DNA of 64,000 bases, taken from the IMG/VR virus record IMGVR_UViG_3300011008_000999; one strand, written 5' to 3'. The translations under genes and the position numbers were made by a program. A model generated the notes under the pieces. It was not told the DNA's origin and ran no database searches. It saw only the letters and a list, made by a program, of their open reading frames with translations. Of this stretch, positions 145 to 49,185 are shown one piece after another (the first letter of the stretch is position 1; each line of letters begins with the position of its first letter). This DNA is from a virus (lineage: Duplodnaviria > Caudoviricetes).

Positions 145-526
145 TTGTCGTGCTCCATTCTATCATATATAAATAAATCATACATGCTATTTCTAATGAG
201 ACCATTAGACATAGTTTTTCTCGTTTACTTATTATAATTTGTATAAATACTGGGAATAGACACAGAATAGCCATAGAAGGTCTCAGGATGACCAAGGAGA
301 TACCTAAAGCTAAGATATAAATAATGTCTATTGGCTGATTTTTATATTTTAACAAGAATAACCCTAGAGTTCCAAAAAGTAGTATAGGATGTACTAATAA
401 GCAAAAGCTACTATAGTTTAAGATTACCAACCAAAATGGCATTTCATTCTTTTTGTAGTCAAAAACCATAATAGCAATTGCAGATAGTACAAATATTATA
501 CTACAGACAAGATTCGTCATGCTCAC
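116..526 (-). CDS. Hydrophobic membrane protein
   Basis: Several TM-like hydrophobic stretches. Confidence 0.6.
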   Translation of the reverse strand: MSMTNLVCSIIFVLSAIAIMVFDYKKNEMPFWLVILNYSSFCLLVHPILLFGTLGLFLLKYKNQPIDIIYILALGISLVILRPSMAILCLFPVFIQIIISKREKLCLMVSLEIACMIYLYMIEWSTTIENIIKHFS

Positions 527-1541
527 CGATATACACCTTAAGTGGAATCTTGCTCATCCAAATAGTATTATCATTCATAAGAGCTCTATACTTCTTAGCA
601 TCATCTGAAGTGAAATATCCTTCATCAGTGAATTCATACTCACGATTACGATTATCTCTCATAAAGCCTTTATAGAAAAGATCAATCTGTTGAGCAAGCT
701 TCTCTTCATTTTCCTTTGAATAATCAAGCTGTAAATATTTCTTAGAAGCGGAATTTCCAGGACAAATGAGATAACCTTTATTGATTGTAGTATTAAGCTC
801 ATTTTCCATTGCCCACTTATAAAGAATCATAGATCCAAGATAACCATTAAATGTTACTGCTTCATCAGTAGGATGACCAGTCTTATAGTCGAGAATAATT
901 ACATCATTTCCTCTATAATCAACACGGTCAGCAACATAAGATACTGCACAAGGAACTGTATATCCAATAGATTTTGCATAAAGATTTTCTGCTCTACCTC
1001 TATGTTCAGTTACACACTTAAGAGTCTTTTCATTAAGTTCAGATCTTGGATGAAGATAATCTTTAATGTCATAGTAACCAGTAATATATTCATCGAGCTT
1101 GGCTTTATCCATATCAGGATTTGTAGCTAACACTTGAGCTTCAAGTTCCCAAAGCTTATCACGAGTTCTCTCTTCACCAGGAAGAAGATAATAATCTTCA
1201 AGGACTTTATGGAATGCCGTACCAATTGCAGTAGCATCATTAGCACCTTCTTCAAAGAAGTTCTGCATTAAACTGAGGGCAGGATTTGTTTTATATCCTT
1301 TCATAAATGATGGTGAAAAATAGTCACCGCTATACCTATTTAACAAGGACTGCAGGTTAGACCCGTAGCCCTTGTAAATAGCAAGATTTTTAGTTTTATG
1401 TTTATTATTGTATGCCTTGATAATTTTAGCAACAGCTTCCTGTACATCAGTAAATAAAGCCTTAGCATCTATTGAGCTGTTATCAATCTTGGCAACGTAA
1501 GTGACTAAAAAGTCCTTACCATTTTCAGTAATGATTTCCAT
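501..1541 (-). CDS. PD-(D/E)XK nuclease, RecB/Cas4-like
   Basis: GTAFHKVLE and ADRVD...ILDYKTG motifs. Confidence 0.8.
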   Translation of the reverse strand: MEIITENGKDFLVTYVAKIDNSSIDAKALFTDVQEAVAKIIKAYNNKHKTKNLAIYKGYGSNLQSLLNRYSGDYFSPSFMKGYKTNPALSLMQNFFEEGANDATAIGTAFHKVLEDYYLLPGEERTRDKLWELEAQVLATNPDMDKAKLDEYITGYYDIKDYLHPRSELNEKTLKCVTEHRGRAENLYAKSIGYTVPCAVSYVADRVDYRGNDVIILDYKTGHPTDEAVTFNGYLGSMILYKWAMENELNTTINKGYLICPGNSASKKYLQLDYSKENEEKLAQQIDLFYKGFMRDNRNREYEFTDEGYFTSDDAKKYRALMNDNTIWMSKIPLKVYIGEHDESCL

Positions 1542-1554
1542 TGCTTACATCTCC

Positions 1555-2532
1555 TTAATATCTGTCGAAAGCAATTCTAGTCTTCATACTATTTGCTTCG
1601 AATGAATCAGCCAAAAGCAACTTAGTAAATGTACTTGTGCCAGGCTTATAAATAAACGCACCAAGTAAATCAGGCTGTCTAAGGAATGATGTCTGAAGCG
1701 CAGAAAACTGTCCATCACGCCATCTAGAAAGAAGAGCAACTTCATAAAATCTAGATTCTACACCTACATTTCCGATTGTATCAATGATCTCCTGAATTTT
1801 ATCTTTTGCAGCAATAATATCCTTAATATCAGGAATTTTCTGCTCAAGAGTAACATTAACCTTTTCAGCAGTACCTTTATTCATAGAGTCGAGAGATGCC
1901 TGAGTTGCGTGCTCAGTAATCATTAAGGTAGAATAAATACCAATATTCTTAGGTGTGAACTCAGTATCATATGAACGTCTATAAAGACCTGCACATTTCT
2001 TACAGAAATGTCTAATACCATGATTACATGAGAGGAAAGTTCTTACATGAATCTTACTTCTCTTAGGTAACTTCTGGATATCAGCATAATCTTCAACATA
2101 CTTATTAAGTTCCATAACCCAATGATTACGAACCTTATAGTTGAAAGTATCTTCATCAATATCTGATACCTTCATTTCAGTTCCTTCACTTCCACAATCA
2201 TCGATCTCAATAGTCATATCATCACATGAACTAATGAGTTTCTTATAGAAGTAACCTGATTCTGTAATATCAGTTACATTAGCGGCAATAACTGACTGCA
2301 TGAATTTCTTTGATTCCTGCTCAGAATAGTTATTATTACGTCTTGCAGCTGATTTCTTTATATCATCTGTATTCTTTGTAAAAGAAGTAATTTTTTCGAT
2401 CTTTGCCATAGCTTTGTCATCATTATCAACAAATGCTGAAGCAAAATCACCAACAGTAGGTACTACGCAGTGTTCAAACATTGCTTCACCTAACTTATGG
2501 TATTTCTTAACATACTCTTGTCTTGTTATCAT
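1555..2532 (-). CDS. rpoC: RNA polymerase beta' subunit, C-terminal part
   Basis: Bridge helix ITESGYFYKKL...DDCGS, Zn site C-x7-CKKC, trigger-loop region IGIYSTLMITEHATQ. Confidence 0.85.
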   Translation of the reverse strand: MITRQEYVKKYHKLGEAMFEHCVVPTVGDFASAFVDNDDKAMAKIEKITSFTKNTDDIKKSAARRNNNYSEQESKKFMQSVIAANVTDITESGYFYKKLISSCDDMTIEIDDCGSEGTEMKVSDIDEDTFNYKVRNHWVMELNKYVEDYADIQKLPKRSKIHVRTFLSCNHGIRHFCKKCAGLYRRSYDTEFTPKNIGIYSTLMITEHATQASLDSMNKGTAEKVNVTLEQKIPDIKDIIAAKDKIQEIIDTIGNVGVESRFYEVALLSRWRDGQFSALQTSFLRQPDLLGAFIYKPGTSTFTKLLLADSFEANSMKTRIAFDRY

Positions 2533-2981
2533 TATTTCTTCTCCTTAAGAACGATTTCTGATCCATCATCATAGATTAATGTTAAAGTATCATCTACAAT
2601 TAGGATATTAACATGAGTTTCAGTTTGCTCTCCAGTGAGTTCATCTTCTGATACGAAGTTTGCACTGAAGTTGTTGTCTATATCATCGTCTTTTATCTCT
2701 TCATACGTACCATCCTGAATAATTCGATCTTCACCAGCATCTATAGCAATATCAACTTTATTATTGCTATAGATTTCAACTGCGACAGTAAACTGTCCGT
2801 AGTCTTTGGTGTAGATTTTGCTAGTTGGTTTAGTAAGAAGAATAATGGTAAGAACAATAAGACCTACAATCATAACTACAAAGAAAATCACAGAAGGAGT
2901 ATCAATCTTACTGTTCTTTTTCTTTTTAGGCTTTGGTTTAGTATCTTTCTTTTCTTCCATTGTTTTACACCTCTTCACCAA
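2532..2981 (-). CDS. Single-TM protein between the two beta' halves
   Basis: Basic N-terminus, one TM helix, acidic beta-rich domain. Confidence 0.6.
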   Translation of the reverse strand: MVKRCKTMEEKKDTKPKPKKKKNSKIDTPSVIFFVVMIVGLIVLTIILLTKPTSKIYTKDYGQFTVAVEIYSNNKVDIAIDAGEDRIIQDGTYEEIKDDDIDNNFSANFVSEDELTGEQTETHVNILIVDDTLTLIYDDGSEIVLKEKK

Positions 2982-4200
2982 TCAACGTTGCAACATATTC
3001 GAACTCTTCAAGAATACCATTTCTGATACTTGAGTTAGAACCTTCAATATAGTTATTACTTGCAAGAAGTTTCTTAGCTTCCTCACATGCTTCTCTTGAA
3101 TAAAGAACAATTACATTAAGTGAGTCACCATCAACGTCTGCAGCAAGTCCATCGTATACGATAGGGTTTGCCTGAATAACGAACTGTTCCTGTTCTAACT
3201 TAGAGAATACAGGCTTCATAGCGATAATTGACTTAGCACCGATGGTAGGCTGTCTATTGAAGAGTACAAGATATTCTTCATCTTCAAGTTCCTGATTGAT
3301 TCCATCGATATCAGTCTTACCATTCTCATCTGTATACTTAGCAAACAGACTAGGATAAAGAGTAGGAATGAAATAATAACCGATCTTAAGAGTGTCTTCA
3401 TCAAGACCAAAGTTATTGGTCATAACTGCACGGATCATACCTGTTTCAGGCTGACCTTTAAGCTCTGCATCAATGATGTTTCTCTTATTCTTTGCAAGGA
3501 TCTGGAATAACTCGTGATAAAGCTTATCGAGTTCCTTACATACAATAAATCTAAGATTGATCTCGTTGAAGATAGTAAGCTTACTATTCTTCTGAAGGCT
3601 CTCATATCTATTGTTCTGACGAAGCATATTGATGTAGATAGTATTCAGATTACCAATGAAGTATTTATCACCCTGGAAAGTAATCTGTCTAAATGAAGTA
3701 TGAGGAATACTTACAAGTCTATACACGTTTTCATTGTACCAAGACTCAGAAACGCCAATACTCATAAGTGCTTCCTTACCGATAAGAATCTTTTTCTCAT
3801 CGTACTTAGAGAGATCTGCCTTAAGGTCGAATTCTACATATTCACCTTCATAAAGGAAACCTCTACTATTGAGAAGATTATCTACCATGACCTTATCATA
3901 AGATTCATAGTTGATAACTCTCTTAGGAAGATCAAAGTTGAACTTAATGTAAAAGTTAGGAATATTACGTTTGTTCAGTACTCTGCAGTTACATTCAGGA
4001 CAAATTCCAGGTTTTGTCTGCTTACCACAGTAGCATTTACCAAACTTACCAAAAATCTTTTCAGAGAAAATTCCATCTTCATGAAAGAGGTAACGATCAC
4101 CATCCTTGATCTTTCTTGCCTGAAACAACTTATCAGACGTTACCTGATTCATAGGATTCTCTACAATATGTACTGGTTTAATCGTCGCTCTCAGAGGCAT
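2965..4200 (-). CDS. rpoC: RNA polymerase beta' subunit, N-terminal/catalytic part
   Basis: DGIFSEKIFG, CYCGK..CPEC zinc finger, LFNRQPTI, catalytic AADVDGD. Confidence 0.9.
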   Translation of the reverse strand: MPLRATIKPVHIVENPMNQVTSDKLFQARKIKDGDRYLFHEDGIFSEKIFGKFGKCYCGKQTKPGICPECNCRVLNKRNIPNFYIKFNFDLPKRVINYESYDKVMVDNLLNSRGFLYEGEYVEFDLKADLSKYDEKKILIGKEALMSIGVSESWYNENVYRLVSIPHTSFRQITFQGDKYFIGNLNTIYINMLRQNNRYESLQKNSKLTIFNEINLRFIVCKELDKLYHELFQILAKNKRNIIDAELKGQPETGMIRAVMTNNFGLDEDTLKIGYYFIPTLYPSLFAKYTDENGKTDIDGINQELEDEEYLVLFNRQPTIGAKSIIAMKPVFSKLEQEQFVIQANPIVYDGLAADVDGDSLNVIVLYSREACEEAKKLLASNNYIEGSNSSIRNGILEEFEYVATLIGEEV

Positions 4201-6430
4201 TGTTATCTTTCTCCTTTTTGATTATACTATTGAAGTTATCTTCATCAAACTGATCATATACAGCTTCATCAGTTGTATCAATATCTTCGATCTCATCTTC
4301 AAGTGTAAGCACATATCCGATGGACTTAAGAATCTCAATAAACTGCATTGATAACTTCGGATTCTTAGGAAGAGTACGTTTCTCTTCAATATCAGTTACA
4401 AGCTTATGTGAACCAACATACTTAGTAATAGAACGAATACCAAGTTCCTTAAGAATGTTAGGACAATCATTAGCTACAAGGTTAAGTTTCTCCATCTCAC
4501 CAAAACGAAGAGTTCTAGTATAACCGTGATCAGCAGAAGAACAACTAACCTTTGTTGAAGCATGGTGATAAAGTCTCATGATATGGTTGATACCTACAGG
4601 AATGATGTTCTTAATTCCCTTGTACTCAATAATAGAGTTTTTAGAATAAGTAGCCATCTGTTTCTTATACTTCTCAATCATAATTGAGATATAATCTTCA
4701 CCATCAAACTTAATTCCTGATGCTCTGGCCCATGCTTCAAAGATCTGACCTAATGAACCACGTCTCATAGTTGAGAAACCTGAGATAACAACTTCAAGAG
4801 GACCTGCTTCCATATTACCAACTTTCTTGGTAAGTCTAGGCATCTGATCATCAGGAAGAATAAGACCTACAGTACCTTTAGCACCATGAAGATTAGTGAT
4901 TTTATCTCCAAGTCTGAAAGGAATTTCCCAAGTAATAAATACACGAACATTGTTTACATCAACATCATCAATCTTAGAGATCTTAACGTTTTCATAACCA
5001 AGTAAAATCGCATAGTTCTTAGTAGGGAAAATCAACTGAAGCGTATCTATATCAATTTCATTAGTGGAATTGTAGATCTTTTCAAGAGCAGTAAATACCT
5101 TGGACTTCTTGTTAAGATATAAGATTGTGCTGTCGTATGTTCTAAGTCTCTTTGCAAAAGATTCAGAAATAACGATTGAGTCAGCAGATGTATATCCTTC
5201 AAGATCAGTAAATCCAACTCTTGCTTCAATACGATGTGTAATATCATCGATCTCATCTGCAAGAGGCACTGCCTGAGAAGTCATCTTCGCATTCATCATG
5301 ATTCTCTTAGGTTTGTCGTTGTTACAGAAAGGTGACTCAGACAAACACGAAAGACGTTTAGTCTGAGGCATATCTACATATTCATACATATTATGCAGAT
5401 TACCCTTATCATCAACAATCCAAAGAAGACCGTCTTTAACTACTACATTATCGAGCAACAGTCTCTGACGACCTGCAGCTTTAGATGTAACAGTCTTAAA
5501 TGAATCGAAGAATCCATTTGTATCTTTGTATGTGAATGCAGGCTGGAAAGATCCGCCGCTATTATAGATATTTGCACAAGTTCTGAAGTTCTCAAGAGCG
5601 AAAATCTTACTTTCAGAACGAACGAGGCAACCTTCAAGGTGTTCACCAAGATCATTGTATCTCTTACTCTTACTTACAATGATTGTGTTTACTCCTAAGA
5701 GAATTCCTTTAGTAGGCTGTGCATATTTTCCAGATTTAAGAACTGCTTCCTCGAAGTATTCAAGTCTAGAAAACTTGTAGTTGAAAATACTATCTGAATC
5801 GAACATAGGAAGCTTTCTAAGAGCTTTAGTAAAGTTCTCAGTAGTTAACTTCTCACCGATAGTAGTTTCAAGAAGCATCTTCGATCTCTTAGAAAGATGA
5901 TTATTGAAGATCTCTTCAATGGTAGGCTCGAACTTGTACTCTTCTTTAGTAACTACACATTCGAATTTATCCTTACCAATATCGTATTTCCAACCTTCAC
6001 CTCTAACAGTTTCGAAGTCAAGCTTACCTACACAACTGTAATAATCCTTTACTGCTGTAACACGAGTTACATAATGTGATCTATTAATGATCCAACAAAG
6101 GTCAATGGAAGGTGTAGGCATAGCACCAATAAGGTACTGCTTTCCATTGTAATCTCCTAATATGTCGATACACATATTATGGAAATTAAGTCTCAGCTTA
6201 TAACTATTAGGTGTCTGTTTGTCGGCTTCTGCATTAAGAAGTCCTGTATTAAGATTTTTTGCCAGCTTACACGGCTCTGCGGTGTTCCAGTACTTTGCAC
6301 AATCGGCATCAATCTGCGCCTGAATTGTAGCAAAGTCATCTTCTTCATTGATTGGACTCACACCGAGAAACTTTTGATTTGCCTGTGTCCAATATACAAG
6401 CTCGTTTTGGTATAATTCCTGGATAATCAT
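4178..6430 (-). CDS. rpoB: RNA polymerase beta subunit (reduced)
   Basis: RIMMNAKMTSQAVPL, GDKITNLHGAKGTV, RFGEMEK motifs. Confidence 0.9.
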   Translation of the reverse strand: MIIQELYQNELVYWTQANQKFLGVSPINEEDDFATIQAQIDADCAKYWNTAEPCKLAKNLNTGLLNAEADKQTPNSYKLRLNFHNMCIDILGDYNGKQYLIGAMPTPSIDLCWIINRSHYVTRVTAVKDYYSCVGKLDFETVRGEGWKYDIGKDKFECVVTKEEYKFEPTIEEIFNNHLSKRSKMLLETTIGEKLTTENFTKALRKLPMFDSDSIFNYKFSRLEYFEEAVLKSGKYAQPTKGILLGVNTIIVSKSKRYNDLGEHLEGCLVRSESKIFALENFRTCANIYNSGGSFQPAFTYKDTNGFFDSFKTVTSKAAGRQRLLLDNVVVKDGLLWIVDDKGNLHNMYEYVDMPQTKRLSCLSESPFCNNDKPKRIMMNAKMTSQAVPLADEIDDITHRIEARVGFTDLEGYTSADSIVISESFAKRLRTYDSTILYLNKKSKVFTALEKIYNSTNEIDIDTLQLIFPTKNYAILLGYENVKISKIDDVDVNNVRVFITWEIPFRLGDKITNLHGAKGTVGLILPDDQMPRLTKKVGNMEAGPLEVVISGFSTMRRGSLGQIFEAWARASGIKFDGEDYISIMIEKYKKQMATYSKNSIIEYKGIKNIIPVGINHIMRLYHHASTKVSCSSADHGYTRTLRFGEMEKLNLVANDCPNILKELGIRSITKYVGSHKLVTDIEEKRTLPKNPKLSMQFIEILKSIGYVLTLEDEIEDIDTTDEAVYDQFDEDNFNSIIKKEKDNNASESDD

Positions 6431-6491
6431 TAGCTAAATCCTTTCATAATATTTTATATAGAAAGTGGATAATGGTGTCTCTTAATATTTT

Positions 6492-6517: not shown

Positions 6518-7066
6518 TTACTGCTGATTTTCTGCAGCAGCCTGGCGCTCCGCCTCACACTGACGAACAATCGCGTTAACCATGTGAGGAAGATAACCAT
6601 TTACTGCGTCATGAGTAAAGATCATAAGTGAGCGGAACTTATCGATAGTCATACCAACACCGATCTTAAGATCTGGCGAACCATCAGGAGCAATTGCTCC
6701 AGTTTCAGTAATCTTACCTTTTCCGCGAGACATATTGATGAAGATCTTGTCCCCAGATCTGCCCAAAGAGAAGATGCGTGATTCCGGTGCACCATTATAA
6801 TTCTTAGAACTCTTTGAACCACCCATAGAGATAGTCTTCTGACCAGCTTCCAACTCTTTAATAAGACGTCCACTAGCTGCATCTGTTGCGAGCAATGCTA
6901 CCTCTTCAAAATCGAGATAACAATCAATGGACGTCTTATCTGTGTAGTTTGCATTCTGAAAACGCACCTTTTCGATTCCGAATGCATCATAATATACATT
7001 TGTAACTACCTTATTGGTACTAGCCTTGGTGATTTTAGATTTTTCAAATTTATCATTACGATTCAT
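6518..7066 (-). CDS. Hypothetical protein
   Basis: 182 aa ORF with RBS and own promoter. Confidence 0.7.
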   Translation of the reverse strand: MNRNDKFEKSKITKASTNKVVTNVYYDAFGIEKVRFQNANYTDKTSIDCYLDFEEVALLATDAASGRLIKELEAGQKTISMGGSKSSKNYNGAPESRIFSLGRSGDKIFINMSRGKGKITETGAIAPDGSPDLKIGVGMTIDKFRSLMIFTHDAVNGYLPHMVNAIVRQCEAERQAAAENQQ

Positions 7067-7105
7067 ATTTTCTCCTTAATCACCATTATCCACCACTATA
7101 TTACT

Positions 7106-7140
7106 ATTATATACTGTTTATCTAAATTTGTAAATAGTTT
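7106..7140 (-). promoter_or_regulatory. Class I sigmaA-like promoter AAACTA-TTTACA-N17-TATAAT (representative of about 18 copies)
   Basis: Exact 17-bp spacer checked here and at 13242, 15468 and 18057. Confidence 0.85.
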
Positions 7141-7200
7141 CTTGTTCAAAAAGAATAAAAATTTGCCAGAGTTAATTACTTAACCCTAGCAAACTTTATA

Positions 7201-34874: not shown

Positions 34875-35462
34875 TTATTTTGAAGACTTCTTAGATGTAG
34901 ATGACTTCGTACTAGAAGACTTCTTAGCTGTAGACTTGCTAGCAGTAGATTTACTTGCAGATTTAGAAGTAGACTTGCTAGAAGACTTCTTTGCTGGTGC
35001 CTTCTTAGGTGTTGTAGCTGTCTTTGTAGCAGGCTTAACTGTCTTTTTCTTGACAGTAGACTTAGTACGAGGGAAAACTTCCATAATCTCCTTCATATCT
35101 TCCTGATATACTTTATTGCCAAACACATACTTAAGAGCTGCGATAGCAAGACCTTTCTCATAATCAAATACATCATCTGGACCACACTTAGCAGTAGTCT
35201 TTGTTCCATCTTTCCAGAAGATAACAACTGCCGAATCCTGACAAATAACATTGTCAATGAAATTTGTGAGCTTAGGTGTAAAATTCTTTGCTCTATGACA
35301 AGCAGCACATTCCTTTACAGTTTCAGCTGCCTTCTTAGCCGTCTTTTCAGCAGTCTTAGCAGCAGATCTTCCAACAGTAACTACCTTTACAGGTACATCA
35401 GAAAGTGCTCCAAAAATACCACCAATTATTTCATCAATTAATTCTTCTTCGCGTTTAGACAT
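34875..35462 (-). CDS. Protein with histone H1-like Lys/Ser/Ala-rich tail
   Basis: WKDGTKT..C..DVFDYEKG domain plus basic low-complexity tail. Confidence 0.65.
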   Translation of the reverse strand: MSKREEELIDEIIGGIFGALSDVPVKVVTVGRSAAKTAEKTAKKAAETVKECAACHRAKNFTPKLTNFIDNVICQDSAVVIFWKDGTKTTAKCGPDDVFDYEKGLAIAALKYVFGNKVYQEDMKEIMEVFPRTKSTVKKKTVKPATKTATTPKKAPAKKSSSKSTSKSASKSTASKSTAKKSSSTKSSTSKKSSK

Positions 35463-40720: not shown

Positions 40721-43663
40721 TTATTTTACATGTCCACATACGCCGCATTTATCATGAACTTGATATAATCTGAATGTACCATTTATTCCAGTTCCCGCAT
40801 TGACATTAGTCAATCCAGCTACTTCATTCATATATGTATCAGTAGTTCCTGGTAATCTATGAGAAGTAATCCAAGCAGGTGAACCTGCCCAACCACCTAA
40901 GAATATCATAGCGCTACCTTCTGTGTACCAAGTACCCTGTCCATTAATTGATACAGCAGTACCACTTCCAATATTACCATAATGCCAATATCCAGCTCCA
41001 GATGGACCTCTAGCATCTCCAGCATAACATGATAAATATATTTGAATAGATGGCTGTTGTAAATATACCTTAGCTGTTTGATTATATGTATGTTCAGCTA
41101 AAGGAATATCTTGGCTATCATAATGATATCCACATGCGCAAGTATAGGTATGTGTTCCTTTTACTGTACAGGTTGAATTAGTCTTTACTGTAGCAGTATA
41201 GGTATGATTTGTAGAAAATACTTGATGACATCTACTACACCAAGTATGAGCATTTGCTTGTCCAGCATATACTTCATTATGACCTAAAGCTGTAGTATAA
41301 TCAGTATTAGCTAGTTTATCTCCACATCTTGTACAAGTATGAGTTGTATATCCCTGTTCTGTACAAGTAGGAGCTACTACAACTGAATCATACTCATGTC
41401 CTAAAGCCGGAGTAACTCTTTGAGTAGATGATAATTTTGCATTACATCTATCACAATAAACTACTTCATTATGAATTCCAGTAAGAGTACATGTAGGTAA
41501 ACTTACAGGTTCATTTACAAATTCTCTAGGATCATGACCTAAAGCTGGAACTATATTATCGTCATAATAATAATCACAAGGTATTCCAGTATTAGGATCT
41601 ATATTAGTGCAATAATGTCTAGTACATCCTTGTTCAGTACATGTAGGTGGGATTACCGCTGTACTTAAATTATGTCCTGTTTTAGGTATAACTACCCAAA
41701 CATTTGTAGCATCTGCTTCACAAGTTAAACAATATTGAACATCATTGTAACCTCCATCTTCTTCACAGGTAGGTTCAATTCTATTTCTAACTTGTCTTTC
41801 AAGTACACAATACTTAGGATCTACTGGAATATGAATATCCAATTCTAGATTAACAATTCCATCAGCTAATTCGTCCCAAGTTTCTGTACCATCCCATCTT
41901 TGACCATCCGCTCTAACTGATCCTTTGTCGTTAAGTGCGGATGCTATGTCAGATTTGATCTTAACGACATTTTGAAAAGACTGTTCTGCATTAGTATTAT
42001 AAGAGTCAACAGATTGCTGATACTGTGTGATTAGTGCTGCAATTTCATCTTTATTTTCTTGTTCCTGCTGGCTCAAATTATTATAGTTAGTAGTTAACTG
42101 ATTACTAATAGAATTGAAGTCATTTTCAATATTTTGACTTTGTGTAGACAAGCTGCTATTAACATCATCAAACTTGCCGTTAATTGTAGAGGTCTGATTG
42201 TTAATACTCGTATTAACACTTTCAGTAATTTGAGTATTTACAGAGTCTAATTTCTCATTAATACTAGCATTACCATTAGATATAGTAGTAGATAAATCGG
42301 AAAAAGACTCATCTACACTAGTCTGTAATTCTGATATAGACTGTTCATATTCAGTTTTCATAGTATCTAACTTATTCTGAAGATCCGTTTTAGATGTATT
42401 ACTTACTTCAGTTAAATCAGTCTGAATACTAGTAAGTTTATCAATAGTATTGCTATATTCTGTAGCATTCTGCGTAGATAAATCGCTAATAAGAGTACTA
42501 ATACTTGCCAATGTACCGTCAAAATGTGTTGTTATAGTATCTAAGTGTGTCTGGATATCTTCAATCTTATTTGGCAAATCATCTGCATTATCTTCTTCAA
42601 TCTGATTGATTAAATCAGTAATTTCAGTTTTTGCTGTAGATATTTCTGTAGAAAGATTAGAGATATCTGTTTCTAAAGTAGATACAGAATTACTAATATT
42701 ATCATTTACTGTTCTGAATTCTACAGTTAATTTTTCATCAAGAAGACCTTCAAATTCATCTAAGTGATCATTGACCTCGGTAGTAAAGTTATTTATTTGC
42801 TCAGTAACCTCACTATGCTGTGTAGCAGTAGTCTCAGATAAGCTTAAAATAGAACTATTTACTGTATCAATATCTGTACTTAATGCTGTAAATTGTTCAT
42901 TTAAGTATTCTGGATTATTACTTTTAGTAGATTCAATTAGTGCTGTGATTGTCTCAGTAGATGTACTAACTGTTGTAGAAATAGAATTAAGATTTGCAGT
43001 TAATGTGGTTAAAGTAGTATCTACTTTTGTTGTCATTTCTGAAAAATTAGTTTTGATTGTCTCAGCTAATTCTTCATTAGACGTTTCTAAATATTTATTT
43101 AATTCAGTCTGAAAATTATTTAGCTTAGCAATGATCTTTTCATATGAATCTTTATTAGCTTTAGACATTTCATCTATCTGTCCGCTAATATCATTAAGCT
43201 TAGCTAAAATGGCTTCAAACTTCGTCATTATCTCTGCGTTCTGACCTTCGTTGATTTCCGTTATTAAAGTATTTATGTCAGTTTTTGTAGTTTCTACCTG
43301 TTTAGATAAATCAGACAAGTCAGTTGTCATCTGATTAAGAACTGTATCTATGTCCTCATTGACAGATGTAAAACTATAGTTTAATGTTTCACTTGTTTCA
43401 TTTATAGTAGTTTTAATATTCTCGACTTCACTTTGGTTAGTGTCGATAATACTACTCATACTATCAAGTGTCACTGACATAGTTTCTAACTGCTCTTTTA
43501 TTTGAGCTGTTGACGATAGTGGAGTAACGGTATCATCTATCGTCGTCATTGGTGGACGCTTATAAGCAGAGTATAAGCCTAGTCCAAGTAAAAGACATAT
43601 AATAAAAATAGAAAAAGCTATTAGTATTATACGCCTTTTTGGTGGATGAAATTTCTTATCCAT
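40721..43663 (-). CDS. Paralogous membrane-anchored coiled-coil protein with Cys/His repeats
   Basis: Same architecture as 37499..40666. Confidence 0.8.
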   Translation of the reverse strand: MDKKFHPPKRRIILIAFSIFIICLLLGLGLYSAYKRPPMTTIDDTVTPLSSTAQIKEQLETMSVTLDSMSSIIDTNQSEVENIKTTINETSETLNYSFTSVNEDIDTVLNQMTTDLSDLSKQVETTKTDINTLITEINEGQNAEIMTKFEAILAKLNDISGQIDEMSKANKDSYEKIIAKLNNFQTELNKYLETSNEELAETIKTNFSEMTTKVDTTLTTLTANLNSISTTVSTSTETITALIESTKSNNPEYLNEQFTALSTDIDTVNSSILSLSETTATQHSEVTEQINNFTTEVNDHLDEFEGLLDEKLTVEFRTVNDNISNSVSTLETDISNLSTEISTAKTEITDLINQIEEDNADDLPNKIEDIQTHLDTITTHFDGTLASISTLISDLSTQNATEYSNTIDKLTSIQTDLTEVSNTSKTDLQNKLDTMKTEYEQSISELQTSVDESFSDLSTTISNGNASINEKLDSVNTQITESVNTSINNQTSTINGKFDDVNSSLSTQSQNIENDFNSISNQLTTNYNNLSQQEQENKDEIAALITQYQQSVDSYNTNAEQSFQNVVKIKSDIASALNDKGSVRADGQRWDGTETWDELADGIVNLELDIHIPVDPKYCVLERQVRNRIEPTCEEDGGYNDVQYCLTCEADATNVWVVIPKTGHNLSTAVIPPTCTEQGCTRHYCTNIDPNTGIPCDYYYDDNIVPALGHDPREFVNEPVSLPTCTLTGIHNEVVYCDRCNAKLSSTQRVTPALGHEYDSVVVAPTCTEQGYTTHTCTRCGDKLANTDYTTALGHNEVYAGQANAHTWCSRCHQVFSTNHTYTATVKTNSTCTVKGTHTYTCACGYHYDSQDIPLAEHTYNQTAKVYLQQPSIQIYLSCYAGDARGPSGAGYWHYGNIGSGTAVSINGQGTWYTEGSAMIFLGGWAGSPAWITSHRLPGTTDTYMNEVAGLTNVNAGTGINGTFRLYQVHDKCGVCGHVK

Positions 43664-48484: not shown

Positions 48485-48826
48485 TCTTTGGACTGAAGTT
48501 CCATTACTCTCTGGTAAGCTTCTTCTCCAATAACATCCATTACGGCATTACCATGTTCTGGTGACTTTTTACAAATTTCCCAAATATCTTTAGCTACTTC
48601 AATTTCGATCTTTTCCATAATAGCATCCTTTCTTTTTATTAAGGAACCATCGCTGCTATCTTTCACTCCTACGATAGTGCACCTAACAGAAGATGTAGCA
48701 TTTACCGGCGCTCAACCTTTACTGTGCTATGAACGACTTTGCTCCAAGTTGAGCCGAGGCGGCTGGAACCATGAAACAAAACTTGTAGAATCCAAAATGA
48801 ATAAAATGACAAATCACTTTGGAAAG

Positions 48827-49185
48827 TGGAGATGAGGGGAATCGAACCCCTGTCCGAAATACTTACTCAGAGCTTTCTACACGTTTATCTTGCTTTTAAT
48901 AAGTTATCTAACCATCTAAACAGGCGAACTGATTAGCAACTAACTATTGTGGTCTTATGTATGAATACTTTTGTCATCCTCTTCATACAGCAGCGATCAT
49001 CTTTGGCCATAAGAGATACGACCGCAATACTCTTATGACTTAACTCTCCGAAGAGAGGTTGCTGCGATTAGGCAGCTGCGTAACCGTAGTTAGCGTTTAT
49101 TGTTTGGTGTCGGATTCAAGAGGTGTCCACCATCCTCTACGTGCTTTTCTCGTTGCTTGTACCCCGTCGAAACCTTTACATCCCC
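48827..49185 (-). ncRNA. ssrA: tmRNA; tag (A)ANYGYAAA*
   Basis: 5' GGGGATGTAAAGGTTTCGAC, 3' GGTTCGATTCCCCTCATCTCCA; ATAAAC-GCT AAC TAC GGT TAC GCA GCT GCC TAA. Confidence 0.95.

Follow-up and report, generated by a model that had tools for sequence, protein, structure and literature searches.

Few enzymes are as conserved as the multisubunit RNA polymerases, and natural versions that lack large modules and have altered 'invariant' residues reveal the true requirements of the enzyme. A giant mobile DNA element from the rumen of cattle and sheep carries genes for a strongly reduced, bacterial-type RNA polymerase core, which raises the question of what these genes encode and where they came from. 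We analyzed a 64,000-nucleotide stretch of this element (the window), the complete record of which spans 331,944 bp (~332 kb). The original prediction had placed a beta gene, two beta' halves and a membrane-protein gene at 1555-6430. All open reading frame coordinates and lengths proved exact, and the genes lie on the minus strand. The operon comprises the following features:

7106..7134, minus strand: sigma-A-type promoter at the operon head (TTTACA, 17-nt spacer, TATAAT; AAACTA extension upstream)
6518..7066, minus strand: first operon gene, a 182-aa protein conserved in position, no family assigned
4178..6430, minus strand: beta-like subunit, 750 aa, unsplit (Pfam, profile alignment, AF2 model)
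2965..4200, minus strand: beta' N-terminal half (beta'N), 411 aa, with Zn ribbon, clamp coiled-coil and catalytic double-psi barrel
2532..2981, minus strand: small single-pass membrane-anchored protein, 149 aa, between the beta' halves
1555..2532, minus strand: beta' C-terminal half (beta'C), 325 aa, with bridge helix, second Cys4 cluster, trigger loop and short C-terminal part
501..1541, minus strand: PD-(D/E)XK nuclease gene (PF12705, 3.2e-11), directly downstream of beta'C

Three polymerase genes in a conserved operon

The core totals 1,486 aa (750 + 411 + 325), ~55-60% of normal bacterial size, and each of its genes is single-copy in the complete genome, as phmmer searches against all open reading frames returned self-matches only. 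In each relative examined (five related records), the three genes are undamaged and their order is conserved. The operon promoter, preceded by a terminator-like hairpin at 7158-7197, matches the consensus at 11 of 12 positions and is kept upstream of the same gene in two relatives (L004 and L005). This first gene, which had the deepest cover in four RNA-library runs, encodes a protein with 47-90% identity and the same position in five relatives; it had no Pfam match, and a Whirly-like ssDNA-binding fold (Atlas score 0.87) is suggested as a lead only. The predicted membrane-protein gene between the beta' halves was confirmed; its product is rich in Lys at the N-terminus, and a hydrophobic helix of 19 residues comes next. 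Its position is conserved and its sequence evolves fast, with 31-82% identity and a dN/dS of 0.17-0.71 versus 0.08-0.26 for the polymerase genes. The nuclease gene, found in the same order in all relatives, is probably co-transcribed with the polymerase genes.

Conserved folds with altered catalytic elements

The DGIFSEKIFG and CxCGK motifs and both Zn sites, as originally noted, can be read directly from the translations. Four further elements were located by motif and alignment:

4874..4888, minus strand: active-site motif HGAKG, beta residues 515-519, equivalent of bacterial HGNKG
3124..3144, minus strand: catalytic motif AADVDGD, beta'N residues 353-359, in place of NADFDGD
2221..2304, minus strand: bridge-helix region, beta'C residues ~77-104, ...VIAANVTDITESGYFYKKLISS... 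(HMMER alignment)
1879..1905, minus strand: trigger-loop motif TQASLDSMN, beta'C residues 210-218 (HMMER alignment to TQLTMRTFH)

The beta protein matched Pfam Rpb2_6 (PF00562, 2.7e-9). It combines a double-psi barrel and a C-terminal clamp part with a short flap and, at its N-terminus, a beta1/beta2-like module of reduced size, and it has none of the long insertions of bacterial beta. Residues H515, G516, A517, K518 and G519 are invariant in 55 sequences and align to the bacterial GrHGnKG. In profile searches, beta matched bacterial beta at 8e-16, AR9 at 9e-10 and phiKZ at 3e-5; the best matches were Firmicutes beta chains (8i23, 8x6f, 6wvj), with the alignment reaching the acidic C-terminal tail. 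An AF2 model (pLDDT 83.4, pTM 0.81) aligned to whole beta/Rpb2 chains from plastid, Pol I, vaccinia and Xanthomonas at Z 17.6-21.3, with 454-555 residues aligned over positions 1-630 at an identity of only 12-16%. Family members in the near-length search had beta proteins of 677-832 aa, apart from one truncated match (416 aa).

For beta'N, we obtained a match to Pfam Rpb1_2 (PF00623, 2e-9), and the beta' profile matched bacterial beta' at 2e-10. C56, C58, C67 and C70 of the Zn site (CYCGK...CPEC) are invariant, and the helices of the clamp coiled-coil (residues 184-204 and 210-238) resemble their bacterial counterpart in sequence. The predicted replacement of NADFDGD by AADVDGD was confirmed in the translation and is conserved across homologues: the motif aligns to aDfDGD of Mycobacterium tuberculosis beta' (chain 5uh5_D), D355, V356, D357, G358 and D359 are invariant, and A353 and A354 occur in at least 90% of the family. 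The metal-binding DxDGD triad is thus present, while the Asn and Phe of the full signature are absent. In bacterial enzymes, this Asn helps to read the sugar of the incoming nucleotide. Structurally, the beta'N model most closely resembled the N-terminal half of AR9 beta' (7s00_d; 326 residues aligned at Z 15.1), followed at Z 13 by mycobacterial beta'. The AR9 chain is of near-equal length, indicating that beta' is split at a similar place.

The match of beta'C to Pfam Rpb1_5 (8.8e-5) fell below the curated cut-off. The protein holds an invariant second Cys4 cluster (C113/C169/C177/C180) and a bridge-helix-like sequence, TESGYFYKKLISS. In the bridge-helix region, HMMER aligned tesGyfykklis to anaGYLTRRLVD of a bacterial beta'; G93 and K97 of this region are invariant. 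The HMMER alignment also bore out the proposed trigger-loop change from QLTMRTFH to QASLDSMN, in which Asp215 and Asn218 stand for the conserved Arg and His; L214, D215, M217 and N218 are invariant. Since beta'N 384 corresponds to E. coli beta' 490 and beta'C 93 to E. coli 791, ~180 residues are without a counterpart, in agreement with the large gap noted earlier between the active site and the bridge helix. Most of bacterial beta' after the trigger loop likewise has no counterpart in beta'C. The missing parts would correspond to the secondary-channel rim and the jaw.

A family under purifying selection, and its origin

Clustering at 90% identity divides the family into more than 120 clusters. 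It occurs in elements of 290-530 kb from the ruminant gut, on contigs that reach 532 kb, and a literature search found no paper describing it. Catalytic residues are invariant in 46-55 homologues, down to ~46-60% identity, and the AADVDGD and trigger-loop variants are constant across ~50 diverged homologues. The dN/dS was 0.08-0.09 in comparison with the nearest relative; for two relatives at greater distance it was 0.09-0.12 and 0.17-0.26. These values indicate strong purifying selection on the polymerase genes. The family presents a three-chain bacterial-type core without alpha or omega that strong selection maintains in many large ruminant-gut elements. Short contigs with 95-99% identity to all three genes were also present in rumen RNA libraries from three studies, a weak hint only of transcription, as DNA carry-over is possible.

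Phylogenetic analysis, which had been suggested as a check, recovered the family as monophyletic (SH-like 0.92; SH-aLRT 84) on a long branch. In both the FastTree and IQ-TREE trees, rpoB of Salmonella, Staphylococcus and Enterococcus forms a clade that does not include it, and its grouping with phiKZ/AR9 enzymes is not stable. Its nearest sequence neighbors are metagenomic fused beta-beta' polymerases rather than cellular beta.

These placements bear on the possibility that the genes are a reduced derivative of a captured low-GC Gram-positive rpoB/rpoC pair, a proposal about origin only and compatible with a functional core. The Firmicutes beta chains as best matches, aligned up to the acidic tail, the bacterial-like clamp coiled-coil sequence, and the sigma-A-like factors, alpha C-terminal domain and extended -10 promoters of the genome all argue for such a capture. 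We nevertheless consider it unlikely, as both trees place the family outside bacterial rpoB on a long branch, structural identity is only 12-16% and the nearest neighbors are the metagenomic fused enzymes.

That the enzyme is simply a diverged member of the phiKZ/AR9-type non-virion polymerases of jumbo phages is, in our judgment, more doubtful still. The AR9 chain is the best structural match of beta'N, the PHROG matches of the polymerase proteins are phiKZ-type subunits, and FastTree put the family beside phiKZ-like beta sequences (SH-like 0.79-0.82). This grouping, however, was absent from the IQ-TREE tree and involves the longest branches; beta profile E-values were far better to bacterial beta, and no phiKZ/AR9 chain appeared among the beta'C matches or the best 60 of 81 beta'N matches. 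Comparison of the systems (7S00, 7OGP) leads in the same direction. Both are encoded by mobile elements, have beta' split near the same place and lack alpha and omega, and beta'N is near-equal in size and fold to its AR9 counterpart, but the element has beta in one 750-aa chain versus two in AR9 (496 + 665 aa) and one enzyme set versus two paralogous sets (virion and non-virion) in phiKZ/AR9. It also has sigma-70-family factors and sigma-A-type promoters where phiKZ/AR9 use a fifth subunit (gp68/gp226) in place of sigma-70; according to reviews, that group lacks sigma-70 genes (PMC7824862, PMC13282480). Overall, its sequence similarity is weaker to AR9/phiKZ than to bacterial enzymes. The unsplit beta, single set and sigma-70 genes bear out the predicted distinctness from phiKZ-type enzymes, though a distant link is conceivable.

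Sigma factors and promoters without alpha or omega

The alpha N-terminal domain (PF01193) and omega (PF01192) were absent from the window and from the whole 331,944-bp record, in searches whose controls matched in 14 of 14 genomes. The predicted lack of omega was thereby upheld, and that of alpha in part: its N-terminal domain is absent, but another part of the genome encodes an alpha C-terminal domain as a fusion with a sigma region-4-like helix-turn-helix. The element further encodes two sigma-70-family proteins, of which one is 418 aa long and contains regions 1.2, 2 and 4, and sigma-70 paralogues were found in all four relatives searched. Genome-wide, ~80 stereotyped sigma-A-type promoters of the extended -10 type share the motif of the operon head; a second motif class reads CTATTTAAT-ATAATA. 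The sigma genes have promoters of the same type as the polymerase operon. As all promoters seen are of a type that the host holoenzyme should be able to read alone, no promoter class needs a second polymerase.

A probable transcribing core

Taken together, we judge that the products of the three genes probably form the catalytic core of the element's own DNA-dependent RNA polymerase, an enzyme of the bacterial beta/beta' type with two barrels. The barrels, the HGxKG motif, the DxDGD triad and the whole-subunit fold of beta, as read from sequences and models, support membership in this class. Such a core would be active, transcribe the element's own genes and assemble although the element supplies neither an alpha dimer nor omega. 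Given the shared promoter type of the polymerase operon and the sigma genes, the earliest transcripts most likely come from the host polymerase, after which the element's core would take over or add to transcription. That it works with the element's sigma-70-family factor at the same ~80 promoters is possible rather than probable; the CTATTTAAT-ATAATA class could be its target instead. Because the genome has both sigma-70 factors and classic -35/-10 promoters, sigma use by the reduced core is directly testable. Speaking against a transcribing core are the replaced Asn and trigger-loop Arg and His, the alpha N-terminal domain and omega not being encoded, the host-readable promoters and the Rpb1_5 match below cut-off. 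With these near-universal residues replaced, rate, fidelity, sugar selection or the type of activity could differ.

The same replacements, the lack of alpha and omega genes and the fact that every promoter seen could use the host polymerase would also fit proteins that no longer polymerize RNA, whether as a relic in decay or as a decoy or scaffold binding host sigma, DNA or host polymerase subunits. This we regard as very unlikely, since the family shows no variation in the Asp triad, the beta Lys or either Cys4 cluster, dN/dS is ~0.08 and each relative examined has all three genes undamaged and in the same order; moreover, YonO-type enzymes reportedly work without a trigger loop. A different nucleotidyl-transfer role, such as priming or relaxed ribo/deoxyribo selection instead of general transcription, could be argued from the Ala that at least 90% of the family has for the sugar-reading Asn, from the possible ssDNA-binding protein and the nuclease in the operon, and from the use of the two-barrel fold by the DNA polymerase PolD. 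We consider such a role highly improbable: G or A at this motif position is common in the many fused beta-beta' relatives and so marks the lineage instead of being an adaptation peculiar to this enzyme, the parts expected of a transcribing enzyme (clamp, Zn ribbon, flap and bridge helix) are kept, and the sigma factors and stereotyped promoters fit transcription.

Nature of the element

The 'phage' label given to this DNA was not confirmed. In Pfam searches of the element, the virion models PF05065 (HK97-type capsid) and PF03237 (Terminase_6N) had no match, nor did PF07068 (gp23 capsid), whose control likewise matched nowhere. Among 30 large proteins scanned (20 against PHROGs, 10 against Pfam), a part of the proteome in which divergent virion genes could escape detection, there was no capsid or portal protein, and the sole weak terminase match was a TrwB/VirD4-like coupling protein. 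The element might be a giant, perhaps conjugative, extrachromosomal element of low-GC rumen bacteria and not a phage, with a private, sigma-70-dependent, alpha- and omega-free 1,486-aa core that reads its own ~80 promoters, a combined proposal that we advance with considerable reserve. If true, this would be the first multisubunit polymerase of a mobile element to rely on a sigma-70 factor, and no smaller sigma-dependent core would be known. Structural work and orthogonal transcription could both profit from a core that is small, separately encoded and sigma-compatible.

Comparison with other polymerases

The element's proteins have their best profile matches in bacterial cores (8I23, 8X6F, 6WVJ, 7L7B), with which they share the two-barrel active site, HG-KG, D-DGD, the Zn ribbon, the coiled-coil of the clamp, the bridge helix, the second Cys4 site and the clamp segment at the C-terminus of beta. 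Both settings also have sigma-70-family factors and -35/-10 promoters. In contrast, beta' is split, the flap shortened, the catalytic motif AADVDGD and the trigger loop without Arg and His, and the alpha N-terminal domain, omega, ~180 residues and most of the post-trigger-loop region are missing. The 1,486 aa compare with 2,438 aa in Clostridium thermocellum (8I23; 1,250 + 1,188) and 2,749 aa in E. coli (1,342 + 1,407). Cyanobacterial and plastid polymerases, which were among the beta'N matches (8H3V_E, 8W9Z_C), also have beta' in two genes (gamma and beta'), broken between catalytic barrel and bridge helix, but differ in being full-size or larger and in keeping alpha, omega and the canonical motifs.

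The mReC polymerases are likewise beta/beta' homologues on metagenomic virus-like contigs, some from host-associated samples. They were selected for having both subunits at least 800 aa long and the motif NADxDGD, and their members have gp23-type capsids (Weinheimer and Aylward 2020, PMC7481178), whereas the element has subunits of 750, 411 and 325 aa, AADVDGD and no gp23 match (the control matching nowhere).

In fused compact polymerases, such as the 982-aa Orf6 of the yeast killer plasmid pGKL2 (PMC2919709), both subunits are strongly reduced, as in the element. The metagenomic fused beta-beta' proteins, its nearest outside relatives in sequence, often have G or A at the first motif position (GADFDGD, AADFDGD). 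Many of them, at 1,215-1,300 aa, are shorter than the element's core, so that the core is not the smallest of its type and 'minimal' applies to it in a relative sense. A fusion of beta with beta'N is also seen in one sister group of the element's family (P0365, 1,091 aa). The element differs from the fused enzymes in its three separate chains, and in trees its family forms a clade apart from the fused groups. Most fused forms examined come from short contigs (about 7-78 kb) and not from elements of 300-500 kb, and our search exposed a large, unnamed diversity of them in metagenomes.

A reduced RNA polymerase core with fixed, atypical motifs

We consider it likely that the reduced RNA polymerase core encoded by the element is a working transcription enzyme and forms a separate lineage. 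Re-reading the ORFs returned the polymerase genes of the original prediction with exactly the coordinates and lengths it had given.

Polymerase genes and the small gene between the beta' halves (window positions)
4178-6430, minus strand, beta-like protein, 750 aa
2965-4200, minus strand, N-terminal half of beta' (beta'N), 411 aa
2532-2981, minus strand, small protein with a lysine-rich N-terminus and one hydrophobic helix, 149 aa
1555-2532, minus strand, C-terminal half of beta' (beta'C), 325 aa

Pfam models matched the core proteins through Rpb2_6 (2.7e-9), Rpb1_2 (2e-9) and, below the cut-off, Rpb1_5 (8.8e-5), and PHROGs gave weak matches to phiKZ-type subunits. HMMER aligned AADVDGD with the aDfDGD of a bacterial beta' and TQASLDSMN with TQLTMRTFH, bearing out the claim that the catalytic and trigger-loop motifs are altered at equivalent sites, and the alterations are conserved across homologues. 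In alignments of 55 beta, 46 beta'N and 53 beta'C homologues (46-98% identity), HGAKG of beta, C56/C58/C67/C70 and D355-V-D-G-D359 of beta'N, and C113/C169/C177/C180, L214, D215, M217 and N218 of beta'C were invariant, with A353 and A354 of beta'N present in at least 90% of homologues. Given this conservation, the odd residues are fixed family traits, not damage. The dN/dS of the three polymerase genes against the nearest relative was 0.081-0.088, and the genome holds no paralogue of any of the three core proteins. As predicted, no alpha or omega subunit is found in the window, and this extends to the entire record, from which the alpha N-terminal domain and omega were absent while positive controls matched.

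The small membrane protein between the beta' halves was rejected as a polymerase subunit. It holds its position but diverges in sequence (31% identity against 66-67% for beta), and its dN/dS was 0.17 against the nearest relative and up to 0.5-0.7 in more distant pairs; because of this poor sequence conservation it is not counted as part of the core.

Extent of reduction and predicted structure

By profile alignment, residues 364-397, 406-429 and 492-741 of beta correspond to 644-677, 774-797 and 920-1188 of Clostridium thermocellum beta (1,250 aa). Hence 363 N-terminal residues take the place of about 643 in the clostridial protein, and the intervals of 8 and 62 residues between the aligned blocks correspond to 96 and 122 there. 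In beta', residue 384 of beta'N aligned with E. coli beta' 490 and residue 93 of beta'C with 791; neither half contains an equivalent of about 180 of the residues that separate the catalytic barrel from the bridge helix, which agrees with the predicted loss of much of this region. After the trigger-loop motif, beta'C continues for about 107 residues and no more.

The AF2 model of beta was confident (pLDDT 83.4, pTM 0.81), and its residues 1-630 superposed on whole beta/Rpb2 chains (Z 17.6-21.3; Foldseek E-values down to 1e-23). The beta'N model (pLDDT 76.4) contained two long clamp helices, 184-204 and 210-238, and matched the AR9 beta' N-half best (Z 15.1), followed by mycobacterial beta' (Z 13.1).

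Relatives and phylogenetic placement

A near-length search recovered at least 120 family clusters at 90% identity, on contigs of up to 532 kb, and an exhaustive profile search found 47 family representatives at E <1e-30. One sister group, represented by the metagenomic protein P0365, has beta fused to beta'N (1,091 aa) on contigs of about 150-180 kb. Past a sharp drop in score, the next matches were for the most part single-chain beta::beta' proteins without a name, about 1,215-1,500 aa long, carrying Rpb2_6, Rpb1_2, sometimes Rpb1_5, and often GADFDGD or AADFDGD. Similar fusions of 1,525 aa lie near a portal gene in Salmonella phage Arash (gp206, L009:5874-10451) and Vibrio phage D69 (L052:2581-7164). 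Cellular beta scored lower than the single-chain proteins. Among solved structures, the beta profile matched Firmicutes beta at 8e-16, AR9 at 9e-10, archaeal B at 5e-9 and phiKZ at 3e-5. The beta::beta' fusions found by profile search (metagenomic proteins P0410-P0511) represent a large unnamed diversity; contigs of about 18 kb carry several of them, and one cluster was binned as Thermotogaceae.

The core may be an old line in its own right, a relation of the phiKZ/AR9 enzymes, or a bacterial gene pair that was captured and then reduced. A beta-core tree of 119 sequences and 403 columns, aligned with MAFFT on anchored segments, recovered the family as monophyletic (SH-like 0.92) and separate both from the rpoB clade of Salmonella, Staphylococcus and Enterococcus and from the fused groups; its neighbours were two very long phiKZ-like branches, at weak support (0.79-0.82). 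A 52-taxon IQ-TREE fast search kept the family together (SH-aLRT 84.2), with one phiKZ-like sequence shifting to AR9. Monophyly and separation from the rpoB clade stood in both trees, whereas the deep placement, including that beside the phiKZ-like branches, was weak and tree-dependent.

To enter the mReC set of Weinheimer and Aylward (PMC7481178), subunits had to be 800 aa or longer and carry NADxDGD; the present family falls outside these limits. A literature search, with subscription journals outside its scope, returned nothing specific to this lineage.

Operon, promoters and expression

Further features of the element (plain positions are those of the window; G000:C1 positions are those of the complete record, and L010 and L045 are loci in it)
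7134-7106, minus strand, operon-heading promoter matching 11 of 12 consensus positions, downstream of a terminator-like hairpin
48824-49185, tmRNA with tag ANYGYAAA (Rfam, 139 bits)
G000:C1:113746-114702 (L010:784-1740), fusion of a sigma region-4-like HTH and an alpha C-terminal domain, 318 aa (PF03118, 66 bits, 6.3e-19)
G000:C1:323625-325199 (L045), 524-aa protein with a TrwB/VirD4 type IV coupling protein DNA-binding domain (PF10412, 6.7e-13)

The operon runs from a 182-aa protein through beta, beta'N, the membrane protein and beta'C to a PD-(D/E)XK nuclease, an order conserved in five related IMG/VR records (beta identity 66-91%). Intergenic k-mer enrichment revealed about 80 coding-strand copies of aaACTATTTACa, most followed by a 17-nt spacer, often ending in TG, and then TATAAT. 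These sites, which can be written AAACTATTTACA-N17-TATAAT, are near-consensus sigma-A-type extended -10 promoters with a fixed upstream extension. The promoter heading the operon is conserved in the two closest relatives, and the sigma gene has a promoter of the same type. Host polymerase probably starts expression of the operon and the sigma gene, as both have promoters that it should be able to read.

Another class of motif between genes, (A/G)(A/C/G)CTATTTAA(T/A) and then an AT-rich tract that is often TTATAATA or TAATAATA (also written CTATTTAAT-ATAATA), has about 35 matches, of which about 30 lie a short way upstream of genes; it may represent a second kind of promoter or leader. At some of these sites a conserved ATGTGAAAAAT comes next. 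The class belongs to the genome as a whole; within the window it lies upstream of 40721-43663 and 34875-35462.

Short contigs with 95-99% identity to all three polymerase genes were present in RNA libraries of three studies, with gaps in cover over parts of genes; such matches record presence in RNA libraries, short of proof of transcription. Contig cover in each of the four rumen RNA-library runs was deepest over the 182-aa gene (window 6518-7066, minus strand). The nearest named Atlas cluster of its product is Whirly-like (score 0.87, a lead only), and the protein may bind ssDNA and be abundant. This gene is flanked, at window 7081-7093 and 6464-6476 (minus strand), by the 13-bp arms of an inverted repeat (GTGGATAATGGTG, CACCATTATCCAC). 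One arm falls within the 5' leader of the 182-aa gene, its partner within that of beta; the repeat could form a long-range stem or a processing site in the RNA.

Sigma factors and a putative holoenzyme

According to reviews, phage multisubunit polymerases occur without sigma and phage sigma factors without a polymerase (PMC7824862, PMC13282480); unlike this pattern, the element encodes both together. Its 418-aa sigma-70-family protein has regions 1.2, 2 and 4, and sigma paralogues were found in all four related records searched. A second sigma-70-family gene, outside the window at G000:C1:29787-31055 (locus L003:1018-2286), carries a single in-frame TAG at the Gln position of the region 2.2 motif DLIQEGN (...SFMDLV*YGNMGL...). 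The nearest relative's orthologue is intact (468 aa), and no suppressor tRNA occurs among the genome's 40 tRNAs; the TAG could reflect read-through, recoding or a fresh nonsense mutation.

In bacterial enzymes, the clamp coiled-coil is the main docking site for sigma. The reduced core retains this coiled-coil and the genome retains sigma-70 paralogues, so a holoenzyme of the core with the element's sigma is plausible; we regard its formation as a tentative possibility, on the doubtful side. Predicted together as a complex, beta'N and regions 1.2-2 of this sigma scored 0.00, which is evidence neither way. The sigma4-alphaCTD fusion may bind the A-rich tract and the -35 element of the stereotyped promoters. 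As a conserved partner it was ruled out, being present only in the nearest relative (75% identity).

All tRNA genes of the genome (40 by ARAGORN, 43 by Rfam) lie with the tmRNA in one 27-kb stretch (window 35831-62805, minus strand), many of them downstream of stereotyped promoter copies.

Nature and source of the element

The window is the minus strand of 143027-207026 in a complete 331,944-bp IMG/VR record with terminal repeats, a GC content of 0.33 and nearly all genes on one strand. The stretch was found in bovine and sheep gut metagenomes from at least nine studies. Although IMG/VR lists the element as a virus, it may be plasmid-like rather than phage. Models of the HK97-type capsid, gp23 (PF07068) and Terminase_6N had no match in it; for PF07068 the control also matched nowhere, so that this negative carries no weight. 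Scans of 30 large element proteins (20 against PHROGs, 10 against Pfam) gave no match to a capsid or portal. The single weak 'terminase' match proved to be the TrwB/VirD4-like coupling protein.

Two peptide patterns, the only ones used, gave 28 matches among 185,579 species genomes, none confirmed as a family member, and the set gave no host assignment through integrated or binned copies. Querying 50,697 phage records with beta and beta'N by tblastn turned up no close isolate. The matches were short, at most 40% identical (most 24-39%), and fell in phiKZ-like phages, the fused polymerases of Arash and D69, and host rpoB/rpoC in unverified 'phage' records. Elsewhere in the element, a 432-aa protein (G000:C1:559-1857; locus L048:559-1857) combines WGR and poly(ADP-ribose) polymerase catalytic domains (PF00644, 2.7e-24).
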